Origin: Patescibacteria group bacterium | Lineage (GTDB): Bacteria; Patescibacteriota; Patescibacteriia; Magasanikbacterales; GWA2-37-8 | Reading direction: 5' to 3' | DNA: 64,000 nucleotides | Assembly (NCBI GenBank): GCA_041649475.1 | Contig: JBAZNA010000001.1 | Location: forward strand, 878,594-942,593 | Position numbers and translations under genes: made by a program | Shown: positions 4,577 to 60,161 of the stretch, one piece after another | Layout: each line of letters opens with the position of its first letter | Position numbering within the stretch: the first letter of the stretch is position 1 | The notes under the pieces: generated by a model | The model's database searches: none | What the model was told of the DNA's origin: nothing | Seen by the model: only the letters and a program-made list of their open reading frames with translations

Positions 4577-5851
4577 CTAGATCTGGTCGTAAGCATGCAT
4601 GGTCAGCTGTGCTTCTATTTGTTTAGCCGTCTCAATTGCCACTGAAACCACGATTAACAAACTGGTACCGCCGATGGCCAAGCTGTTTGTGCCCATGAAG
4701 CCCTGAACTATCAAAGGTAAAATGGCAATTATGCCCAAAAATAAAGCGCCAATTAAATTTATGCGATTCATGGTTTCGCCCAGATATTTTTCGGTCTCTT
4801 TGCCCGGTCTTATGCCCGGAATAAAACCGCCTTGTTTTTGCAAATTTTCAGCAATTTTTTGCGGATGGAAAATAACGGCCGTATAAAAATAGGTAAAGCC
4901 GAAAACCAACACAAAATACATTATGGCATAAAAAATCTGGTTCTGAAAAATGGCTATGGTGTGAGTCGCGAAGTTGGCAATCCAGGCGGTTTTGGCTTGG
5001 GCAAAAAATTGAGCGATAAGCGGCGGAAACAGGATCAAAGAGATGGCAAAGATAATCGGAATAACTCCGGCCATATTCACGCGCAAAGGCAAATGAGAGG
5101 TACTGCCTCCATACATACGGTTGCCGCGCACCTGTTTGGCGTAATTTACCGGAATATTGCGCTGGCCTTCATTTATGAACACCACCCCGACGATGGTTAA
5201 AAGGGCAATGCCGGCAAATAAAATCATTGTATAAAAATCGGCCGAGCTATAATTTAAAGACATGGTTCTTATCGCTCCGGGCAAAGAAGCCACAATGCCG
5301 GAAAATATCAGCAGAGAAATTCCATTGCCGATTTTTTGTTCGGTAATAAGTTCACCGAGCCACATCAAAAACATGGTACCACCGGTTATGGTGATCATAA
5401 TGGTGAAAAGGCGAAAAGGATTGATGTCGGTTATGATGGGTAAAGCCGAATTGCTAAGCAGTTTAATCATGGCGTAGGATTGTAAAAACGCCAAAGGAAC
5501 GGTAAGCAAACGCGTATAATTATTAATCTTCTGCTGGCCGGCTTCGCCTTCTTTGGTCATCTCTTCAAGCTTAGGCACGATCATGCTAAGCAACTGGAAA
5601 ATGATTGAAGCGGTGATATAAGGACCGACGCCAAGCATGACTATGGAAAAATTTTTCATTGTTCCGCCGGAAAAAACGTCCAATAAGCCAAAGACCTGAT
5701 TGCCGGCTAGAAACTGCCTTAAATTTTCCAAATTTATACCCGGGATTGGAATGTGGGCAACCAATCTGAAAACAACCAAAAGCGCAAGCACAAACAAAAC
5801 CTTGTTTCTGATGTCTTTAATTTTCCAGACCTGCTGGATTTTATCCCACAT
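4577..5851 (-). CDS. secY: Preprotein translocase SecY
   Basis: 424 aa polytopic membrane protein in the canonical position after L15. Confidence 0.95.
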   Translation of the reverse strand: MWDKIQQVWKIKDIRNKVLFVLALLVVFRLVAHIPIPGINLENLRQFLAGNQVFGLLDVFSGGTMKNFSIVMLGVGPYITASIIFQLLSMIVPKLEEMTKEGEAGQQKINNYTRLLTVPLAFLQSYAMIKLLSNSALPIITDINPFRLFTIMITITGGTMFLMWLGELITEQKIGNGISLLIFSGIVASLPGAIRTMSLNYSSADFYTMILFAGIALLTIVGVVFINEGQRNIPVNYAKQVRGNRMYGGSTSHLPLRVNMAGVIPIIFAISLILFPPLIAQFFAQAKTAWIANFATHTIAIFQNQIFYAIMYFVLVFGFTYFYTAVIFHPQKIAENLQKQGGFIPGIRPGKETEKYLGETMNRINLIGALFLGIIAILPLIVQGFMGTNSLAIGGTSLLIVVSVAIETAKQIEAQLTMHAYDQI

Positions 5852-28012: not shown

Positions 28013-28094
28013 ATATTTTTATTAAAAATTAATTAAAATTTGATTATACCTATTCTATCTCATCCACATATGCACAGTCAACATCAAAATTTTA

Positions 28095-28123
28095 TTGACA
28101 CGCAACTCGCTATTGCCTACAAT
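28095..28123 (+). promoter_or_regulatory. Cassette promoter TTGACA-17-TACAAT
   Basis: 28095-28100 is TTGACA; 28118-28123 is TACAAT; spacer exactly 17 bp; ~55 nt upstream of the GC-rich prs-like ATG. Confidence 0.6.
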
Positions 28124-28180
28124 GCAGACAAAGTTCGCACCTTTAACAACGCATTTCGCGAAAGCGGAAAGGATATACGG

Positions 28181-29392
28181 ATGTCAGACAACCTTGAGAA
28201 GGTTCTGGGTTCCACTATTCCCTCCTTCATCAGCCGACTGATGCAAGATGCGGCTACATACGTCGCAGAAAAAGTTGGTACTACGACGGTACAGATGCCA
28301 ACGTTTTTCGTGGAGCTGGCCGACACTCTCAAACGGCTGGCCGAACAAGCCAGACATAACCGCAACGGCGGGCTGACCCTGGTGCCCATGCCGGGATTCG
28401 TGGAACTGGCCAGCACCACCAAGAAGCTCATCGAAGAGCACGAGAAAGACACGCCGGTGGACATCGTCGTGCCCGAATTCAACACCCGCAGCAACAAGGA
28501 GCCGGTCGTGCGCCTGAGCAAGGACCACATCGGCGGCCACGACTGCGTCATCCTCACCAGCGGACCTGGCACCTACGAGATGCTCACCCAACTCCAGTTG
28601 GCTCTGGGTTATCTGGTCGGCCGCCGGGCCGCCAGAATCTCAATCGTAACCGGCTATCTGCCCCTAGGCAGATCAGACAAGGACGAGGGGGCGCTTGAAT
28701 TCGCTCTTGCTTCCCACATCGTTCACATGATCGTCTCCGCCTCCTACGGCCATCTGGATCGTATCATCGCTCCGGACCTGCACGCACCCCAGGTGGTCAT
28801 GGCAGCGCAGGTCGGTCTCATCACCGAGGTAACGCTCGCCCGTCGCGTGCTCACAAGGGCGGTCTCGGATGCGCTTGAGAAGTTCAAACGCATCTGCCTG
28901 GTTCTCCCTGACGATGGCGCCTACAAGAAGTTCATGCGCGTCATTGCCGAAGTCGAGAAGAATCTCAACATCAAGCTGCCGGTGGTCTGCGGCCAAAAAC
29001 GCCGCAACAGCGACACCCATTCTGAACTCCTCGGCTTGGCCGGTGACACGAGCGCCTTGAAGGACGCGCTGGCTATTGGCTTTGACGACGAGATCGCCAC
29101 CGGCATCACCACTGTGCACACCGCCGAGGCAGTGCTCCGGCAGTATGACGCAGCCGACTACTGGGCGGCGGCGATCCACGGCGTGCTCTGTGGCGATGCT
29201 CCCAAGATCCTCTCTTCTGAACTCTGCCCGATCACGCGGGTATTTATTACCGACTCCATCCCGCCCAACGGCCGTATTGAGCTGGATCCGCTGCGCGCCA
29301 GCGACCGCCTGAAGGTGGTTTCCTGGGACGAAGATCTGGCTCACCTCATCTACTATCACCACTGGGACAAGTCCATCCGCGAAATGCGCTAG
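28181..29392 (+). CDS. Ribose-phosphate pyrophosphokinase (Prs/PRPP synthetase) homologue with a ~150 aa N-terminal extension, GC-rich cassette
   Basis: IVTGYLPLGRSDKDE aligns with the Prs PYFGYARQDR region; APDLHAPQV with DLHA; FDDEIATGIT with the PRPP-binding DD.DTG; ~58% GC against ~38% flanks. Confidence 0.65.
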   Translation: MSDNLEKVLGSTIPSFISRLMQDAATYVAEKVGTTTVQMPTFFVELADTLKRLAEQARHNRNGGLTLVPMPGFVELASTTKKLIEEHEKDTPVDIVVPEFNTRSNKEPVVRLSKDHIGGHDCVILTSGPGTYEMLTQLQLALGYLVGRRAARISIVTGYLPLGRSDKDEGALEFALASHIVHMIVSASYGHLDRIIAPDLHAPQVVMAAQVGLITEVTLARRVLTRAVSDALEKFKRICLVLPDDGAYKKFMRVIAEVEKNLNIKLPVVCGQKRRNSDTHSELLGLAGDTSALKDALAIGFDDEIATGITTVHTAEAVLRQYDAADYWAAAIHGVLCGDAPKILSSELCPITRVFITDSIPPNGRIELDPLRASDRLKVVSWDEDLAHLIYYHHWDKSIREMR

Positions 29393-37384: not shown

Positions 37385-37405
37385 CCCTAAAAGGAGGCGC
37401 TAATC

Positions 37406-37615
37406 ATGCCGATCTTTGGCAGTGACGAAGACAGATACACAACTTGGAAATGCCCTTCGTGCCACAACTACTTCGGCAGAAGCGGCAAGTGTTCCGTCTG
37501 CGGCGACACGCTAGTGCAGAGTGCCATCTCCGACGCGGCGGTCAACCGCATCATCTACGCTAGGGACATCGAACGGCCCCGGCAACAAGACCAGAAAAAG
37601 CGCGAAGGAGGATAA
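37406..37615 (+). CDS. Small zinc-ribbon protein (GC-rich cassette)
   Basis: 69 aa; CPSC...17...CSVC; its stop overlaps the RBS of the next ORF. Confidence 0.5.
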   Translation: MPIFGSDEDRYTTWKCPSCHNYFGRSGKCSVCGDTLVQSAISDAAVNRIIYARDIERPRQQDQKKREGG

Positions 37616-37621
37616 GGCGCC

Positions 37622-37909
37622 ATGGCAAAAAAAGTCATAAATGGCCAGGTCATAGACGACCTTGGGATAGATCTCGACAGCTTACCCCTCCCAGCGCAAC
37701 TGCTGGAGGAGCGGCGGCGCAAGGGTCATCCCATCGAGATCCCAAGCTTGGGCGTCATCATCATGCCCGATGGAACCGTGGTGGACAAGGGCCTGCCCCC
37801 GGACGACTACGCTAGGGCCAGCCCGTCCGAAAAGACCGCCACGCTCAAGCGGTACGAGCCAGAGCAGGGTTTCTTCGCCCGCCTGTGGCGGCGGATCTTT
37901 CACAAATGA
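37622..37909 (+). CDS. Hypothetical 95 aa protein (GC-rich cassette)
   Basis: GAAGGAGG RBS then ATG; ~60% GC; followed immediately by repeat R1. Confidence 0.5.
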   Translation: MAKKVINGQVIDDLGIDLDSLPLPAQLLEERRRKGHPIEIPSLGVIIMPDGTVVDKGLPPDDYARASPSEKTATLKRYEPEQGFFARLWRRIFHK

Positions 37910-37915
37910 GTTCGT

Positions 37916-38000
37916 TCATTCCCCAAGGAGGGTGCTCCGCGAACAGCAACAACAGTTCGCACCCCTCAAAAGCAACTCACCAGATGGGTTGTTTTTGTTT
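37916..38000 (+). repeat. R1: ~87 bp 3' module (GCGAAC...GTTCGC hairpin plus T-rich tail), 84/87 identical to R2
   Basis: tcattccccaaggagggtgctccgcgaacagcaacaacagttcgcacccctcaaaagcaactcaccagatgggttgtttttgttt. Confidence 0.6.
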
Positions 38001-38066
38001 AGGTTGGGGTGTCTTTATTTTCCTATATAGCGTATGCTACAGATATTAAGACCTAACACTGAATTT

Positions 38067-38519
38067 ATGATAAAACCACTGCTTATTCTGCCTCTGTTAA
38101 TTTTAGCCGGAGCCGGATGCGCATACGCGCCAGCCACAAATAATCAAACTAACTTAAACTACAGCAACCAAAACCTGACTTCGGCTCCGGCTGGAATTTT
38201 TGATAGAACCGACGCTACCAGTCTTGATCTCTCACACAATAATCTGACTGGAGCCATCCCAGCGGAAATAAGATTTTTACAAAATCTTAAAGTTCTGAAC
38301 TTGAGTAATAATAAAATGACTGGCCTGCCCGCCGAAATCGGCCAATTAAAAAATCTGGAAATTCTTGACGTGTCCAACAACCAACTGACCGGCCTGCCAT
38401 ATGAATTGGGAAATCTAAAAAACTTAAAAACCCTGAATTTGTCTGGCAACGCGTACTCCGAACAAGACCTCCAAATCATCCGCGAGAAAATCCCAAATGC
38501 GAATATTATTACTAAATAA
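38067..38519 (+). CDS. Secreted leucine-rich-repeat protein (native AT-rich composition)
   Basis: Signal peptide MIKPLLILPLLILAGAGCAYA; four LxxLxxLxLSxNxLTGLP repeats. Confidence 0.7.
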   Translation: MIKPLLILPLLILAGAGCAYAPATNNQTNLNYSNQNLTSAPAGIFDRTDATSLDLSHNNLTGAIPAEIRFLQNLKVLNLSNNKMTGLPAEIGQLKNLEILDVSNNQLTGLPYELGNLKNLKTLNLSGNAYSEQDLQIIREKIPNANIITK

Positions 38520-38626
38520 GTGCTTTCAACTGGATCCTTCTTGAACTTAAATAAGAGCTTCATCGAACATTGACGGCTCATCTTTTTTCATATTTAATAT
38601 ACATACCCAAATGAAGGAGGACAGGC

Positions 38627-39442
38627 ATGCGCATTATCTTGTTGAGTTTCGTGCTCGGGATCTGTGTATCAAGTGTGCCCCACCATGGGATCGCCCAAAG
38701 AGATTCGTCAAGACCATCCCTGGCCACACTGGACAAGCAGATCTTCACCCAGAACACGGTGATTGAGGCCGATCGGATCGAGATCCAGAGTGGAGCCAGG
38801 ATCCGCGTCCGCAACGGAGCGGCCTTGAAGCTCAAGGCAGACACCATCGTGATCTTTGGCCCCGCCTTCATCGACGGCCGCGGCGAACCCGGCCACCAAG
38901 GCGCTCCCGGGCAATCGAAGAACGACACCTGGCGGAGCAGCGGTGGCGGCGGGTGGTATAGCTGCGATATCGCCCATCGCGACTGGGTGGCTTCCGGAAG
39001 TGAGGTTGACCGCGGCGGGGATGGTGGACCGGGCGGTCCCGGAGGACCTGGGGCGATCATCATCCTGGAGTACAGGGACCTACAGGGTCCCGCCAACCTG
39101 CAAACCGAATTCCGAGGCGGACCGGGCGGTCCCGGAGGACCTGGTGGAACCGGCAGAATCCTCTGCTGCGGTTGCCACAACAACGAGTGCAAGCGGGGTC
39201 CTTCGGGTAGGTCAGGGCCAAACGGCCAGCCAGGTCCCAATGGACGGGAAGTTCGTCGAAGTCTGACGAGAACCCAATCCATTGATTCCACCAGCATCAC
39301 GCCGCCGCCGGAGCGCATGGAGTCGTGCTACCCCAACCCCTGTCCGTCCGGAATCTGCTGCGAGAACCAAGGCAGAATCTGGTGCTGTTCCGAAGGACAG
39401 TACTGCACCTATTCGCCTGATGGATGCAAGTACCGCAAGTAG
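38627..39442 (+). CDS. Secreted Gly/Pro-rich (GPGGPGGPG), Cys-rich protein (GC-rich cassette)
   Basis: AAGGAGG-N6-ATG; signal peptide MRIILLSFVLGICVSS; two GGPGGPGGPG tracts; 15 Cys in the last 120 aa (CCGCHNNEC, CCENQGRIWCC). Confidence 0.55.
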   Translation: MRIILLSFVLGICVSSVPHHGIAQRDSSRPSLATLDKQIFTQNTVIEADRIEIQSGARIRVRNGAALKLKADTIVIFGPAFIDGRGEPGHQGAPGQSKNDTWRSSGGGGWYSCDIAHRDWVASGSEVDRGGDGGPGGPGGPGAIIILEYRDLQGPANLQTEFRGGPGGPGGPGGTGRILCCGCHNNECKRGPSGRSGPNGQPGPNGREVRRSLTRTQSIDSTSITPPPERMESCYPNPCPSGICCENQGRIWCCSEGQYCTYSPDGCKYRK

Positions 39443-39560
39443 GCCGTCGCTCTTTTCTCCTCCGCCAGTCTGGCCCTTCCAGCTGGCTTCTTTTTTTATC
39501 AAAAATAATTGTATTCCAAATAAAGTCATGTTAAACTGACTGAAAGAGGAGGATGGGACA

Positions 39561-39938
39561 ATGAAAAAATACAAGCACTTCTCGGGTGCAGTGCTGATGA
39601 GAGACGAACTCAAAAAGAAGTTCGGCACGCCGAAGTGGCTCGCCGGCATCGTTGTGATGCACACCGTCCGGTATGGCTACCTCGTGGAAGTACGCGTCTT
39701 CGGCAAGGCCAAGTTCCCCAAGCTACCCAGGTTGCCTCTCTACCTCCGGGATGCCACCAGGGTCCGCTTCCGGCGGGTGAAGAAAACACCGGAAGCGCGA
39801 CTGAAGAGGGCAATCGCCCGGTTTGAAGATCCGGCTTCGCACGTCGCCGACAATGTTGCTCTCTCAGCAACCCTACACGAAGCCGCCGAAGCCCACTCCA
39901 AAATCCTGGGACCACATGGCCGCCTTCGACATTGCTAA
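39561..39938 (+). CDS. Hypothetical basic 125 aa protein (GC-rich cassette)
   Basis: AGAGGAGG RBS; ~58% GC; followed immediately by repeat R2. Confidence 0.5.
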   Translation: MKKYKHFSGAVLMRDELKKKFGTPKWLAGIVVMHTVRYGYLVEVRVFGKAKFPKLPRLPLYLRDATRVRFRRVKKTPEARLKRAIARFEDPASHVADNVALSATLHEAAEAHSKILGPHGRLRHC

Positions 39939-39940
39939 AC

Positions 39941-40027
39941 TCATTCCCCAAGGAGGGTGCTCCGCGAACGGCAACAAAAGTTCGCACCCCTCAAAAGCAA
40001 CTCACCCGATGGGTTGTTTTTGTTTAC
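39941..40027 (+). repeat. R2: second copy of the 87 bp 3' module
   Basis: Differs from R1 at three positions; starts 3 nt after the stop, as R1 does (7 nt after its stop). Confidence 0.6.
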
Positions 40028-40083
40028 AAATGTTGAATTTTGAGGTAAAATTGAATATGAAAAAATAAACGCCTGCAGAAATT

Positions 40084-54592: not shown

Positions 54593-55558
54593 TCATTTTT
54601 TCTTGTTTCTTGAAACTCTGGTTAATCCGCTACAAGGCACGATTTCAATGCCTTTCTTTTCAAGCTGATCCAGGAATAAATTCATGCCCAGGGAGTCCGA
54701 AGAAATATGTCCGGCAATAACCACGTTCATATGAAACTCGTTGGCTTTATCCATAGCGTCATCGCGCATGTGCATACCGACAATCGTGCTGATGCCGGCG
54801 CGTGATAACTCTTGATACACTTTATTTGAAGGATTAGTGCCACCGGTCATCTCCACTAAAAATTTACCGACTTTATTTTTCGGATTGCCGGCAAAAATCT
54901 TCGGACCGGCGCCGCGTTTTTTCGCTTCCTGATATTCCGGAATTTCCATTAAGGCCTTTAACAGATCGCTGATTGTTTCCGGTTTCTTTTTAGTCAGATA
55001 TTCATGAAGAAATTTATTAACCAAATTATCGGTAATGGTATGGGTGTTAATCACATCCACTTTAAGCGCCTTGGCCAGATCAATAATCTGATAATGATTG
55101 GCCGGATGCACACTGCGGCCCACTTCTCTGATTCTTTCATCCATTAATTTTTCCGCCACATGCACCGGCATGCCCAAGTGCTCATAAACCTCAACGATCA
55201 TGTCCATCACGCTGTGCAAAGACGCCAAACTGCCGCCAATCGGGTGATGACCAATTACCAAATCAATCGGTTTACCTCTCTCATTTAACTGGCTGGCCAA
55301 TAAAATTTCGCCGGAGCCAATATCAATTCCTGATAAAACCCGTTTAACTTTTTTATCCGGGTTGCCGACATGAATTTTGCTGTCATCATACGGATTCTCC
55401 AGCCGGTCTTTATCAAAATATTTTTTCTCGTCCGGTTTCAAATCCTCATATTCTCTTTTGGTTCGCTCTAAATATTTTTTCACGCCCTTGGCGCCACGCG
55501 GATCGGCGGCCATGCCGATTTTCAGTCCCAAATCAAAAATTTGTTTTGTTGTTAACAT
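54593..55558 (-). CDS. Nif3-family dinuclear-metal protein
   Basis: VIGHHP and IAGHISSD metal-binding motifs. Confidence 0.75.
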   Translation of the reverse strand: MLTTKQIFDLGLKIGMAADPRGAKGVKKYLERTKREYEDLKPDEKKYFDKDRLENPYDDSKIHVGNPDKKVKRVLSGIDIGSGEILLASQLNERGKPIDLVIGHHPIGGSLASLHSVMDMIVEVYEHLGMPVHVAEKLMDERIREVGRSVHPANHYQIIDLAKALKVDVINTHTITDNLVNKFLHEYLTKKKPETISDLLKALMEIPEYQEAKKRGAGPKIFAGNPKNKVGKFLVEMTGGTNPSNKVYQELSRAGISTIVGMHMRDDAMDKANEFHMNVVIAGHISSDSLGMNLFLDQLEKKGIEIVPCSGLTRVSRNKKK

Positions 55559-55630
55559 ATGTAAAATTTTAATGACTTATTAGCCAATCATAGGATAAAA
55601 AAGCCAATATGTCAACCTTGAAAAGGAATT

Positions 55631-55664
55631 AAAAAAGGGCATACGGTGTGAACACCGGATGCCC
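55631..55664 (-). terminator. Intrinsic terminator GGGCAUCCGGUGUUCACACCGUAUGCCC plus U6
   Basis: 6 + 6 bp interrupted stem, then T6 on the minus strand. Confidence 0.6.
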
Positions 55665-56415
55665 AATGGGACCCGAGGATACTCTGGACCTGGGGGTGGT
55701 CGTAAATCCCCGTTTCCCGTGGGGTTCTGCTTCCCCGTGGCTCACCACTACGCAGGTGACTCGACCCATCTGCCTTTCGGCCACCAGGGCGGGTGTAGAT
55801 CTTGGGAGGGCGGCACGGGCGCTTGCATGTCATCAGTCGGGCTGTTAAGCCCTATGTGTGGAACAGCAGCTTCACCTGACGCTCCTTTCTTTTCCTCTGC
55901 GGGTGTTCGACCCCCGGATAGAGGTCGAATACTCGATAAAGGTGGGAAACGAGAGAGTGAACCCCCGCGTTTCCCGTACTGCACTGCTTCCATGCTTTGG
56001 CGCGACCCTGCGAGGTTACGGCCCTTGAGTTGAGAGAATAGTACTTCCCCGAAGGCTTTCCTATCCCGTACAACCTGGGCCTGCATAGTACCCCGAAGTG
56101 ACTTTGCCCTGCTTGGGCGTTGGCTAGGGGTGTGGTCGCCACTTAATTCCACACCTTGCGTTTAACTGCGCACGACACCTCCATCCTTGGGTGGTGTCAC
56201 CCTTGCTTGGCGCGGGAGCTTTGTCGTAATGCTCCGCAGCGCGGGTTTACGGTTTACGTGCGCCTAATGGACGCACGCACGGCGGGATCTACTTCTGTGA
56301 CCCCGAGTTAGAGAAACGGGCCATAACGCATGTGGTCCACTCCTCCACCGAGCCGCCGGCACATAGTCCGAGGGCCTTTCACAGGCCGCTAAATATTAAC
56401 GGACTACGAAAGATA
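55665..56415 (-). ncRNA. Candidate large structured ncRNA (~750 nt, ~60% GC) with its own promoter and terminator
   Basis: No credible ORF in either orientation; multiple GNRA/UUCG-capped helices (GGCCGAAAGGC, GCCUUCGGGG, CACUUCGGGG, GGGAAACG...CGUUUCCC). Confidence 0.45.
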
Positions 56416-56422
56416 ATGGATT

Positions 56423-56451
56423 AGTATAGCAGAAATTGTTCGGTTTGTCAA
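56423..56451 (-). promoter_or_regulatory. Promoter TTGACA-17-TATACT for the GC-rich ncRNA candidate
   Basis: Reverse complement of 56446-56451 is TTGACA; reverse complement of 56423-56428 is TATACT; located in a short AT-rich spacer. Confidence 0.55.
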
Positions 56452-56702
56452 CCTCTCGACCACTTTGGTCAAGAGGCAATTACTTACCACTTCGCTTTAA
56501 TGTCCCCACATAAGTGAGAGTCCAAAGATCAAAATGGAAAGTAATTGGGAGCCGAAGTGTTTGAGCACTGCGGCTGTGCCTCCAGCAATGTTCGCTCGCG
56601 CGAACGATTCGCATGGCCAGCCGCGTGGCACACTAGGGGTGCGGCTGTTAGGGCTGGTGGTCTGCCTCATACCTGATGCGCACGGAACGATCTCCGTTGA
56701 CA

Positions 56703-56918
56703 TCACAGGTCCAGGAGCAAACCCCCTTGTAGACACCCTCTGTCTTCTTGACCTTGGAGAGGTCGCTGATCTGTCGGCCGTCCTTTGACGTTGGAAGCCG
56801 CCTCCGCGAGAACTGCGAGGATGACGATGGCGATGATGACCCAGAAGGTGAACTTGTAGATCCCCTTCTCGTTCAGGTACCAGTCCATGTCGGATATCTT
56901 GTTCCTGATCTTACCCAT
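56703..56918 (-). CDS. Small single-transmembrane protein (71 aa) in a GC-rich unit
   Basis: AAGGAGAGG-N3-ATG; MGKIRNKISDMDWYLNEKGIYKFTFWVIIAIVILAVLAEAAS... Confidence 0.4.
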   Translation of the reverse strand: MGKIRNKISDMDWYLNEKGIYKFTFWVIIAIVILAVLAEAASNVKGRPTDQRPLQGQEDRGCLQGGLLLDL

Positions 56919-57224
56919 GTTCCTCTCCTTATCCTCGAACCACCCACACAAACCAACGCGCATGCGCCAGTCCGGGGCGGCTTCTTTCTCTAAGTTGAAA
57001 TGAACACAGAATGTTTCCATCCTGGACCGAGTGAACGACCCTATAACGTAGATTATTCACTTCGTTCAAAATGACAACGCCCATATTAACACAAAATCCC
57101 TCGTTGAGAGAGATTCTTGTTTGTCGCCCTTGTCAGGGCTAAAATTAGAGTATATTTTACTTGCGCCTAGCTGCACCTCTCTCAAATGCCACTATGCGCC
57201 TATTTTTTGATACTTAAACAAGCA

Positions 57225-57253
57225 AGTATAGCACAAATGAGAGATTTTGTCAA
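57225..57253 (-). promoter_or_regulatory. Promoter TTGACA-17-TATACT (30-mer paralogous to 759-787)
   Basis: Reverse complement of 57248-57253 is TTGACA; reverse complement of 57225-57230 is TATACT; immediately downstream of the ileS stop. Confidence 0.55.
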
Positions 57254-57275
57254 TAGCCCAACGGCTCGTTTCGGC

Positions 57276-60161
57276 TTATTTTGGCCTTTCTACGTTCAAT
57301 TTAACCTTCCCTCCGCCAATTTCAACCTCTTCCCCTTCCGCTCCGACCTCTATTTTTACAGCTAAAACCGACTTTTTGATCTCATCCGCATAATCGCTAA
57401 AAACCGAGCCCAACAAATCATCAGAAGTAGTATATTTAACAACCACCGCGTCATTAATCGTCAACTTCTGGTCTTTGCGCATTTGATTAATGGTCCGCAC
57501 CAGCTCGCGCACAATGCCTTCTTTTTTCAATTCTTCGGTCATCATAATATCCAACCCAACCTTCACGCTGGTATCCTCTTTCACTGTAAAATTTTCATTC
57601 GCTTCAATCCTGCCCATCTCAACTTTTTTAACATTTAATTCATCGGCAATAATCACATACAAGTCCTTGGAAAGCGCTTCGCTCAAAATCAGACGCGACA
57701 ATGGCTGGCGAACCTTGATACCTTTCTCGGCTCTCAAAGCCAAACCGAGCTCAACGACTTTTCTGGCCAAATCCATTTCATCCATTAATTTTTTATTGAT
57801 TAATTTTTCATTCACCTCCGGCCACTTATCCAAATGCACGCTTTCTTTCTCTCCGCCCAAAGCCAAATAAATTTTTTCGGCAATAAACGGGGTAAACGGC
57901 GCCATCACTTTGGATAACTGCAACAAAACATATCCCAAAGTGGTAATCGCTGATTTTTTATCCGCGCCATCATCACCCTTAAAACGATCACGACTGCGGC
58001 GGACATACCACTGTGATAATTCAGTGACAAATTCCAAAATCGGCCGGCTGGCATTTACCAATTCATAATTTTCCATGCCCTTAGTCGCGTCTCTTATAAG
58101 CAACTGCAATTTTGATAATATCCAACTATCTAAAACATTGTCGGCTTTTTTTATTTTATCTTCAACCTTTTGGTCAACCGCGTACATTTTGTAAAATTCC
58201 AAAACATTCCAAGCGGTATTTACAACTTTGTTATACATCTCACGCACGCCAATCTCGGAAAAATTTAAGGACTCGGCCGTCATGACCGGTGAAGTAGCCA
58301 AATAATACCTCATCGCATCCGCGCCGTATTTTTCCAAAACAATATCCGGCTCCGGATAATTTTTCAGACGCTTGCTCATTTTTTTGCCATCTTCTGCTAA
58401 AACAATTCCATTGACAATGACATTTTTAAACGCCGGTTTGTTCTTCAGGGCCGTTGCCAAAACATGCAAGGTATAAAACCAGCCGCGGGTCTGATCCTGG
58501 CCTTCGGCGATGAATTCTGCCGGAAAACCATTTTCAAATTTTTTCTGATTTTCAAACGGATAATGCATTTGGCCATAAGGCATACTGCCGGATTCAAACC
58601 AGACATCCAAAATTTCCGGAATGCGGCGATATTCTTTGCCATCTTTTTTTATCACATATTTATCTATAATATGCTTATGCAAATCAGTCACTTTTTGGCC
58701 GGATAATTCCGTGAGTTCAGCGGCACTGCCAACACAAATCAAATCACCCTCGGCGCTCTCCCAAACCGGCAACGGCGTGCCCCAATAACGGTTGCGTGAA
58801 ATGGCCCAATCACGCGCGCCTTCCAGCCATTTTCCAAACCGGCCTTCTTTAATATGTTCCGGCACCCAATGAATGCCTTTGTTGTTTTTCAGTAGATGGT
58901 CTTTTAATTCGGTAACTTTCACAAACCAACTGCTGGTCGCATAATTTAACAGCGGGGTATCACAACGCCAACAATGCGGATAGCTATGTTCGATTTTTTC
59001 TTTAGCAAATAATTTATTATTATGCGCCAGCCATTTTATCACTTCCACATCGGTGCGAGTTGGATCGTCTTTTGGTTTTACATCCATGTTTGGAAAATCG
59101 GTCACCGCCGGCATAAATTTTCCTTCCATGGTCACATGCTGGACCAAAGGCAGACCCTCTTCTTCGCCAACATTATAATCATCCTCGCCAAAAGCCGGGG
59201 CAATATGGACAACACCGGTGCCGTCTTCAGTGGAAACAAAATTTCCAGCCACCACCCTGAACGCTTTTGGTGTATCGGCAAAATACGGGAAGAGAGGTTC
59301 GTATTCCAAACCGACCAAATCAGAACTTGATAAATTTTTTATAACTGAATATTGTTTGTCTTTTAAAACTGAAGTTGCCCGATCCGCGGCCAAAATATAT
59401 ACACCGACCTCGCCGGCAATTTCCACTACCTGATAGCCGATTTGCGGACCGACTGCCAACAAAACATTTCCCGGTAGAGTCCAGGGGGTGGTTGTCCAAG
59501 CCAAAACATAGACATCACCGTCCAAATCTAACTTTTCCGGATTTTTTAATTTAAATTTAACCGTTGCTGAAATATCTTTTATATCTTTATAGTTCTGGGT
59601 CACCTCAAAATTTGAAAGCGGAGTCACGCAGTGTGGACAAATATGCATCGGCTTATGCCCTTTATAGATCAATTTCTTTTTCCAAAGCTCCTTGAAAACC
59701 CACCAGATGCTTTCCATAAAGGTCGGATCCATGGTTTTATAATCATTCTCCATATCAACCCACCGGCCCATTCGTCTCACCGTACTTTTCCACTCATTGG
59801 CATACATCAAAACCGTGGCCCGGCACTCTTCATTAAATTTATCAACCCCATAATCCTCAATTTCCTTTTTACTGCCCAAATTTAATTTTTGTTCAATCAA
59901 ATTTTCAACCGGCAAACCGTGGCAATCCCAACCCCAACGGCGTTCCACCCGAAAACCGCGCATTGTCCAAAAACGCGGCACCACATCTTTCATGAGCGAT
60001 GCCACCAAATGCCCGTAATGCGGCAAACCCGTGGCAAAAGGAGGCCCGTCATAAAAATGGTAGGGCTTGTTTTCCGGCCGCTCCGAAACGGACTTCTCAA
60101 AACAATGATGTTCGTCCCAATATTTTAGAATTTCTCGTTCTTGTTCGCTGGAGTTATACAT
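57276..60161 (-). CDS. ileS: Isoleucyl-tRNA synthetase (type 2, eukaryote-like KMSKR)
   Basis: 961 aa; HYGH (PHYGHLVAS) and KKMSKRLKNYPEP motifs. Confidence 0.9.
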   Translation of the reverse strand: MYNSSEQEREILKYWDEHHCFEKSVSERPENKPYHFYDGPPFATGLPHYGHLVASLMKDVVPRFWTMRGFRVERRWGWDCHGLPVENLIEQKLNLGSKKEIEDYGVDKFNEECRATVLMYANEWKSTVRRMGRWVDMENDYKTMDPTFMESIWWVFKELWKKKLIYKGHKPMHICPHCVTPLSNFEVTQNYKDIKDISATVKFKLKNPEKLDLDGDVYVLAWTTTPWTLPGNVLLAVGPQIGYQVVEIAGEVGVYILAADRATSVLKDKQYSVIKNLSSSDLVGLEYEPLFPYFADTPKAFRVVAGNFVSTEDGTGVVHIAPAFGEDDYNVGEEEGLPLVQHVTMEGKFMPAVTDFPNMDVKPKDDPTRTDVEVIKWLAHNNKLFAKEKIEHSYPHCWRCDTPLLNYATSSWFVKVTELKDHLLKNNKGIHWVPEHIKEGRFGKWLEGARDWAISRNRYWGTPLPVWESAEGDLICVGSAAELTELSGQKVTDLHKHIIDKYVIKKDGKEYRRIPEILDVWFESGSMPYGQMHYPFENQKKFENGFPAEFIAEGQDQTRGWFYTLHVLATALKNKPAFKNVIVNGIVLAEDGKKMSKRLKNYPEPDIVLEKYGADAMRYYLATSPVMTAESLNFSEIGVREMYNKVVNTAWNVLEFYKMYAVDQKVEDKIKKADNVLDSWILSKLQLLIRDATKGMENYELVNASRPILEFVTELSQWYVRRSRDRFKGDDGADKKSAITTLGYVLLQLSKVMAPFTPFIAEKIYLALGGEKESVHLDKWPEVNEKLINKKLMDEMDLARKVVELGLALRAEKGIKVRQPLSRLILSEALSKDLYVIIADELNVKKVEMGRIEANENFTVKEDTSVKVGLDIMMTEELKKEGIVRELVRTINQMRKDQKLTINDAVVVKYTTSDDLLGSVFSDYADEIKKSVLAVKIEVGAEGEEVEIGGGKVKLNVERPK

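Follow-up and report, generated by a model that had tools for sequence, protein, structure and literature searches.

Genomic Context of the Locus

The window, i.e. the whole 64-kb stretch of DNA that was analysed, belongs to a tiny groundwater bacterium that lives as an episymbiont and has a reduced genome. On its minus strand, the spacer between the IleRS gene and a Nif3-like gene (54593-55558) holds a GC-rich small ORF and, between this ORF and the Nif3-like gene, a GC-rich unit with a promoter and a terminator of its own. Genes of Candidatus Magasanikbacteria and of other Patescibacteria MAGs match the Nif3-like gene with 62-75% identity, and exactly its protein is encoded on a 963-kb NCBI MAG contig and in an independent Logan assembly. 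The independent Logan assembly and the window show 100% identity in the studied region, which rules out an assembly artefact.

IleRS followed by Nif3 is a conserved gene order in Magasanikbacteria, with spacers that range from ~90 nt to at least 1.7 kb. The spacer is empty in L006, L009, L018 and L069-L072, and L003 has a low-GC ORF of 309 aa in this place. L008 (2283-3600) carries a gene with 62% GC for a Kelch-repeat lipoprotein, and GC-rich non-coding units occupy the spacers of L002/L073 and L004/L079. The unit of L073 (4440-4910) is ~400 nt long with ~60% GC, and in L079 (1-1200) the unit is ~530 nt long and is followed by a GC-rich orphan ORF of 162 aa. Such a distribution suggests that foreign cassettes have entered one and the same site several times. 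The RNA of the window is part of a lineage-specific GC-rich insertion in this insertion hot spot, a context, including the GC-rich small ORF beside it, that was missed by an earlier sequence-only reading in which the unit had been noticed as a candidate novel large ncRNA.

The unrelated payloads of L008, L079 and L073 (~60% GC) all stand behind a similar first promoter (TTGACAAAA...). A search for a conserved leader or sRNA downstream of the first promoter that follows IleRS gave a convincing alignment for the promoter only. In three other relatives the IleRS-Nif3 spacer contains a unit of ~200 nt that has a promoter and a terminator, the latter conserved (...CCUAUAAAACAGCUUUAAAUAAGGCUGUUUUUU; L010 9700-9940, L011 9590-9830, L038 9720-9945); it gave no match in Rfam and may be an unannotated small RNA. 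The L038 locus, from a related member of the Magasanikbacteria, also encodes a SAM riboswitch at 5661-5770 (RF00162, 46.3 bits), which is unrelated to the window RNA.

The small ORF (56648-56918, minus strand) lies in the same insertion as the RNA unit. It consists of an N-terminal part (MGKIRNK...), a transmembrane helix and a tail that is short and includes Cys, and its GC3 is 0.78-0.90 with a switch of phase near 56770-56800. It looks like a frameshifted gene for a small single-pass membrane protein, and the frame shift could be programmed, or reflect a pseudogene or an error of sequencing. The ORF has its own near-consensus promoter (57253-57225, minus strand), from which it is separated by a leader of ~300 nt with host-like GC and a terminator-like hairpin (57111-57088). 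Searches of PADLOC, Pfam and PHROG gave no significant match for it.

In the 3' region of the small ORF lies a GUUCGC-GCGA-GCGAAC hairpin (56590-56605), which has a GNRA loop on the minus strand, is not followed by a U-tract and is the sole such site in the window. The sequence-only reading had placed this hairpin in the transcript of the RNA unit; it lies upstream of the promoter and thus outside the transcript.

The Predicted Transcription Unit

A sigma-70-type promoter is found at 56423-56451 (minus strand), with the -35 element TTGACA at 56451-56446, a spacer of 17 nt that ends in TGc (extended -10) and the -10 element TATACT at 56428-56423. It had been described as perfect; the promoter is indeed there, but with 11 of 12 consensus matches plus the TG it is near-perfect, as TATACT is not the consensus -10 hexamer. 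Transcription is predicted to start near 56416-56417, which gives a predicted non-coding transcript of ~786 nt (55631-56416, minus strand). The GC content of the unit is 0.56-0.60 against a window mean of 0.44, and both size and composition agree well with the ~750 nt and ~60% GC given before.

The unit ends in an intrinsic terminator (55631-55664, minus strand), GGGCAUCCGGUGU-UCAC-ACACCGUAUGCCC followed by U6. Its hairpin (55664-55637) has a folding energy of -18.7 kcal/mol (z -5.4), so that the earlier description of the terminator as strong holds; the list produced by a simple terminator scanner lacks it. An equivalent hairpin with U6 occurs at the same relative place in L041, the closest relative (see section "An Orthologue with a Conserved Core"). 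After the terminator follows the Nif3-like gene's own promoter (55587-55615, minus strand), the position of which is kept in relatives. The promoter of the RNA unit would be strong and of a constitutive type, and, judged from the predicted promoter and terminator, the unit is probably transcribed.

Coding Capacity

The unit is non-coding. Each of its six frames contains 5-15 stops of mixed kinds (TAA, TAG and TGA), and none is depleted relative to the ~9 stops per frame that were estimated from base composition. Periodicity of GC3 is weak and GC is nearly flat over the codon positions; in GC-rich coding genes nearby and in relatives the codon positions differ by 0.3-0.6. No protein homologue was found when the concatenated six-frame translation was compared with 5.8 billion proteins, Pfam gave no match for any ORF of the unit, and the gene caller placed no gene in it on the Logan contig of the independent assembly. 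The corresponding element of L041 is likewise non-coding, with weak periodicity and 6-14 stops per frame. The absence of a credible ORF, as reported by the sequence-only reading, is thus borne out. Stop-codon recoding was considered and rejected: with all three kinds of stop present, no single reassignment opens a frame.

An Orthologue with a Conserved Core

L041 is a Logan contig of 2.8 kb that carries P0002, the closest relative in the protein collection, and its Nif3 is 88% identical to that of the window. The first 1.1 kb of the contig, directly upstream of Nif3, has 54-62% GC and the remainder 29-41%. This GC-rich element occupies the same spot as the window RNA and is collinear with it. 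It is ~300 nt longer than the window RNA, and the contig stops inside it. The two elements share a short 5' block, a core of 170-190 nt, a 25-nt block, a 13-mer, the terminator and the Nif3 promoter, and the sequence between these shared blocks is barely alignable. The core is 82% identical (gaps included) over 170 nt (E 7e-39), with a mean column identity of 87% and perfect runs of 16-17 nt. The 25-nt block is 92% identical and the 13-mer is the same in both.

A neutral reference is given by the Nif3 genes of the same pair (window 54593-55558, L041 1138-2103). Their four-fold degenerate sites share 28.6% identity, where composition alone predicts 21.8%, and neutral sites are therefore saturated between the two genomes. 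Because perfect runs of 16-17 nt have been kept in the core while neutral sites are saturated, the core is under purifying selection. The GC content of the four-fold degenerate sites is 69% in one Nif3 gene and 26% in the other, which indicates a rapid shift of genomic GC within the lineage. The element has kept a GC content near 58% in both lineages despite these strongly differing host compositions.

The two cores differ by several indels of 1-2 nt and by a deletion of 11 nt that falls exactly at a hairpin tip, a pattern typical of RNA helices. Since such indels and the hairpin-tip deletion separate the orthologous cores, a conserved ORF is excluded.

Predicted Structure of the RNA

The conserved core of ~190 nt (55983-56174, minus strand, as are all elements of the RNA described below) consists of a closing stem P1 (GUGC/GCAU), two hairpins Pa and Pb, and a long hairpin Pc. 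Pa (56127-56155) has a 7-bp stem, GGUGUGG/CCACACC, and a 13-nt loop, AAUUAAGUGGCGA, in which one base is different in L041. Pb (56106-56118) is the hairpin GCCC-AAGCA-GGGC and is identical in L041. Pc (56002-56102) is an irregular hairpin of ~40 bp with a variable tip (56035-56067) that is 11 nt shorter in L041; it contains one compensatory change from an A-U to a G-C pair and two switches between G-U and G-C.

Just 3' of the core lies hairpin H with a conserved 3' tail, CACCUUUAUCGAG (together 55932-55975). Its helix GGGAAACG...CGUUUCCC (55975-55944), which had already been picked out in the sequence-only reading, reads GGGAAGCG...CGCUUCCC in L041, i.e. it is kept with an A-U to G-C compensation. 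Near the 5' end, a further hairpin (56362-56408; -21.4 kcal/mol, z -4.4) pairs GUAGUCCG...CGGACUAU around GGCCU-GUGAA-AGGCC, and its TGAAAGGCCC block is common to the window and L041. The conserved 13-mer, CACGGGGAAGCAG (55727-55739), belongs to the 3' domain and lies in an internal repeat. This direct repeat, GGAAGCAG-N6-ACGGGAAACG in RNA sense, is present at 55708-55734 and 55965-55991 with 78% identity over 27 nt; the 3' domain contains one copy, and the other follows the core directly on its 3' side. The repeat's GGGGAAGCAG part is kept in L041.

Other helices named before fared less well. CACUUCGGGG had been predicted as a tetraloop, but the consensus fold from both species has it as one strand of a long helix, and the GCCUUCGGGG hairpin belongs to the stem tip that is missing from L041. 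The supposed richness in helices capped by GNRA or UUCG loops is not there either: the transcript has 0 such helices of at least 4 bp (0.7 in dinucleotide-shuffled sequences), 2 of at least 3 bp (1.9) and 4 of at least 2 bp (5.3).

The same Pa, Pb and Pc helices are obtained when the two cores are folded independently, and the consensus fold agrees with them. All 65 consensus pairs (65/65) form in both copies, compared to 41-50% with the partners shifted by 1-3 columns; the consensus structure was derived from the same two sequences, and this conservation of pairs is therefore supportive rather than decisive. In four of the 65 pairs both partners differ, two of these being clean A-U to G-C replacements (one in Pc, one in H), and five further pairs switch between G-C or A-U and G-U. 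The check by homology and covariation that the earlier reading had asked for yielded a homologue and four double changes; with two firm sequences the covariation is anecdotal.

The minimum free energy (MFE) of the whole RNA is -323 kcal/mol (z -4.5 with 100 dinucleotide shuffles, z -3.2 with 20). The corresponding z-scores are -6.4, -3.6 and -4.9 for the elements of L041, L073 and L079, -3.3 for the reverse complement of the window RNA, and -1.2, -3.0 and -3.1 for three GC-rich coding controls. The core alone is thermodynamically ordinary (z -0.3 and -1.4 for the two copies). Folding energies thus agree with a structured RNA but do not discriminate.

Search for Further Homologues

A covariance model of the core (R1) scored 221 bits in the window and 215 bits in L041. 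It gave a weak third match in L002/L073 (17.8 bits, E ~0.007 in 677 kb), located in the same slot with the same orientation; five further assemblies of the species carry it unchanged. The L002 match has a Pa-like stem of 7 bp with three double changes, a 13-nt loop that starts with AAU and a shortened long hairpin. When L002 is added there are 11 double changes, in an alignment in which L002 was fitted to the R1 model. The base for covariation hence comprises two firm orthologues and one weak third. A second model that included the L002 match (R2) yielded nothing new in the ~0.65 Mb of related loci searched with R1 and R2. L079 was not detected by either model and shows a marginal local similarity to the window (GCCGAAACCUC..GUCGCG.GAAAGCAUGC, p ~0.055). 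It is possible that the family is wider than the window and L041.

None of 39 syntenic loci taken from GTDB genomes resembles the RNA in sequence. Among relatives retrieved via Nif3 homologues, L042, L043 and L069-L072 are without the element, L082 has a different context and only L041 was positive. Because relatives with a Nif3 identity of 75-80% or below do not have the element, the RNA is dispensable and young. A blastn search against phages and plasmids gave no match, k-mer scans of IMG/VR with conserved core blocks gave chance matches only, as checked with nhmmer, and a scan of JGI metagenomes with a two-block pattern gave a single chance match in a transporter-like gene. Within the 64-kb window there are no paralogues; similarity there is limited to promoters.

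Other GC-Rich Islands in the Window

Several other GC-rich islands were observed in the window. On the minus strand at 151-790, an island of ~0.6 kb with 60-67% GC is equipped with a strong, near-identical promoter (787-761), and its terminator lies near 245-200. Its codon periodicity is strong only at the two ends and its ORFs are very short; it may be another non-coding or mixed cassette. At 37400-40050 lies a GC-rich island of orphan small genes with products of 69, 95, 125 and 271 aa, for which no significant Pfam, PHROG or PADLOC match was obtained. The 271-aa product is rich in Gly and Pro, looks secreted and contains GGPGGPG repeats. The same island includes two direct repeats of 86 nt (37916-38001 and 39941-40026) that are 97% identical and each have a GC-rich hairpin and a T-run, resembling a terminator. 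Lastly, a gene with ~60% GC in low-GC surroundings (28040-29392) has a weak likeness to ribose-phosphate pyrophosphokinase (PHROG 619, 2.7e-13; sub-threshold in Pfam).

Interpretation and Alternative Explanations

We propose, with moderate confidence, that the unit is an independently transcribed gene for a structured ncRNA of ~790 nt, found in a narrow lineage of Candidatus Magasanikbacteria and with a core under selection. The orthologue in L041, with its conserved core that tolerates indels, its common helices and its compensatory changes, has strengthened the initial proposal of a novel large ncRNA. A known Rfam family and a conserved ORF had been named as findings that would speak against it; no Rfam match turned up and the indels leave no room for the ORF. 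In a minimal genome, non-coding DNA that is retained is unlikely to be idle.

The unit could instead be left over from horizontally acquired GC-rich DNA, transcribed yet functionless, with a core that reflects constraint at the DNA level, gene conversion or recent exchange. This would fit with a lineage-specific insertion in a highly variable slot, with the lack of homologues elsewhere in the searched collections and with the other GC-rich islands of the window and its relatives, which hold mostly orphan genes. The neighbouring ORF is apparently frameshifted, and the insertion may thus be decaying. A decayed gene in an AT-biased genome should, however, lose GC, and both lineages keep ~58%. The stop density is random, yet a block of 190 nt is 82-87% identical where synonymous sites are saturated, and the substitutions in helices preserve pairing. 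A near-consensus promoter and a strong terminator have also been kept. We therefore regard a functionless remnant as unlikely.

The adjacent ORF raises another alternative, in which the RNA is one half of a mobile or defence-type module and serves with the small membrane protein as RNA antitoxin, as regulator of a membrane toxin or in an OLE/OapA-like ribonucleoprotein. The RNA and the gene for a small single-pass membrane protein are indeed part of the same insertion with a strong promoter each, and in L079, too, a GC-rich non-coding unit lies beside a GC-rich orphan ORF. The partner ORFs of the window and L079 are unrelated, however, and the L041 contig ends within the RNA. Tandem repeats like those of type III antitoxins are absent, and the small ORF is apparently frameshifted and lacks a match in PADLOC, Pfam and PHROG. 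A module of this kind seems quite unlikely.

It is very unlikely that the unit is a cis-acting part of an mRNA, i.e. that it extends the message of the small ORF as a long 3' UTR or precedes the Nif3-like gene as a long leader or attenuator. Its orientation is that of both neighbours and no canonical terminator separates the small ORF from the RNA promoter, but the RNA has its own near-consensus promoter and strong terminator, the separate Nif3 promoter that follows is kept in relatives without the element, and in many relatives IleRS abuts Nif3 directly. Finally, that the unit encodes small peptides or a recoded or frameshifted gene is hardly credible, since its ORFs of 96-134 codons and a faint GC3-like signal, seen at 55800-55960 in the reading frame used by the 96-codon ORF, are outweighed by mixed TAA, TAG and TGA stops in every frame, the lack of protein homologues in any frame and the indels of 1-2 nt between orthologues in the conserved part.

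Possible Mode of Action

If the unit is a gene for a structured ncRNA, the core of ~190 nt together with hairpin H would be its functional part, held constant by selection, and the GC-rich peripheral helices would be free to change fast in sequence and length. By analogy to other large bacterial RNAs, the product may be a stable folded RNA that acts in trans. Its conserved loops and internal loops might bind a partner, most likely a protein, as may be conjectured from the same analogy.

A more far-reaching reading concerns the slot itself. The IleRS-Nif3 spacer could be a site for capture and expression, in which a strong, conserved promoter (TTGACAAAA...) serves repeatedly acquired foreign cassettes of ~60% GC, with surface or secreted proteins (the Kelch lipoprotein), small membrane proteins and structured RNAs as payloads. 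The RNA would then be an acquired effector in the interaction between symbiont and host, possibly taken from, or aimed at, a higher-GC host of the episymbiont. We consider this improbable as it stands; if true, it would mean a new class of RNA for symbiont-host interaction. The presence of unrelated payloads of ~60% GC in the same slot of genomes with 35-43% GC raises the question of how reduced genomes acquire and express foreign DNA.

Comparison with Known RNA Classes and Systems

At gathering thresholds, an Rfam cmscan of the whole window gave only a tRNA. A search of 55400-57400 with Rfam 15 up to E=10 did not list GOLLD, ROOL, OLE, HEARO or raiA; the kinship with GOLLD, HEARO, ROOL and OLE of which the sequence-only reading had been reminded is thus not reflected in any model match. 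Several established classes were considered and rejected. RNase P, tmRNA, SRP, 6S and rRNA, to which the RNA could not be matched by eye before, gave no match in Rfam and ARAGORN found no tmRNA; a housekeeping RNA is also rejected since the element is absent where IleRS abuts Nif3. Group I and group II introns gave no match up to E 10, and the element is intergenic with its own promoter and terminator. A ToxI-like RNA of a type III toxin-antitoxin system was rejected because Tandem Repeats Finder gave only a trivial repeat of 15 nt, and an omega RNA or bridge RNA because the neighbours are IleRS, the small orphan ORF and Nif3, with no transposase. The long hairpin was compared by eye to an integron attC-like site and rejected, as it deviates from the R-box consensus and there is no integrase. 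The ends of the element are not marked by inverted or direct repeats in its flanks.

To our knowledge, few ncRNAs beyond the universal ones have been described for CPR/Patescibacteria, and a literature search found no paper on large structured RNAs in this group or on this element.

The insertion as a whole resembles phage morons, which also have their own promoter and terminator and a deviant GC content, stand between two conserved genes and carry different payloads per species at the same spot, as seen in the IleRS-Nif3 slot. It differs from them in being chromosomal, in having an ncRNA as payload and in the lack of nearby phage genes or PHROG matches. With OLE and OapA the window shares the arrangement of a large structured RNA beside a gene for a small membrane protein; the RNA does not match the OLE model, however, and the small ORF is an unrelated, apparently frameshifted orphan whose pairing with the RNA is seen in one genome.

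The closest parallels are the large bacterial RNAs. Unlike these families, the window RNA has no prophage or tRNA neighbourhood, is distributed far more narrowly, over two or three lineages, and has a CPR host, and up to E 10 it does not match the Rfam models of GOLLD (RF01998), ROOL, OLE or raiA. Like these four, it falls into the size class of 0.6-0.8 kb, forms a stand-alone transcription unit and combines a conserved core with variable peripheral helices, and with GOLLD and ROOL it shares an accessory or horizontally acquired context. The window RNA is therefore probably a new lineage-restricted large ncRNA, i.e. a new family within a known category, and a strongly promoted RNA of ~0.8 kb with a selected core would extend the short list of large bacterial RNAs.
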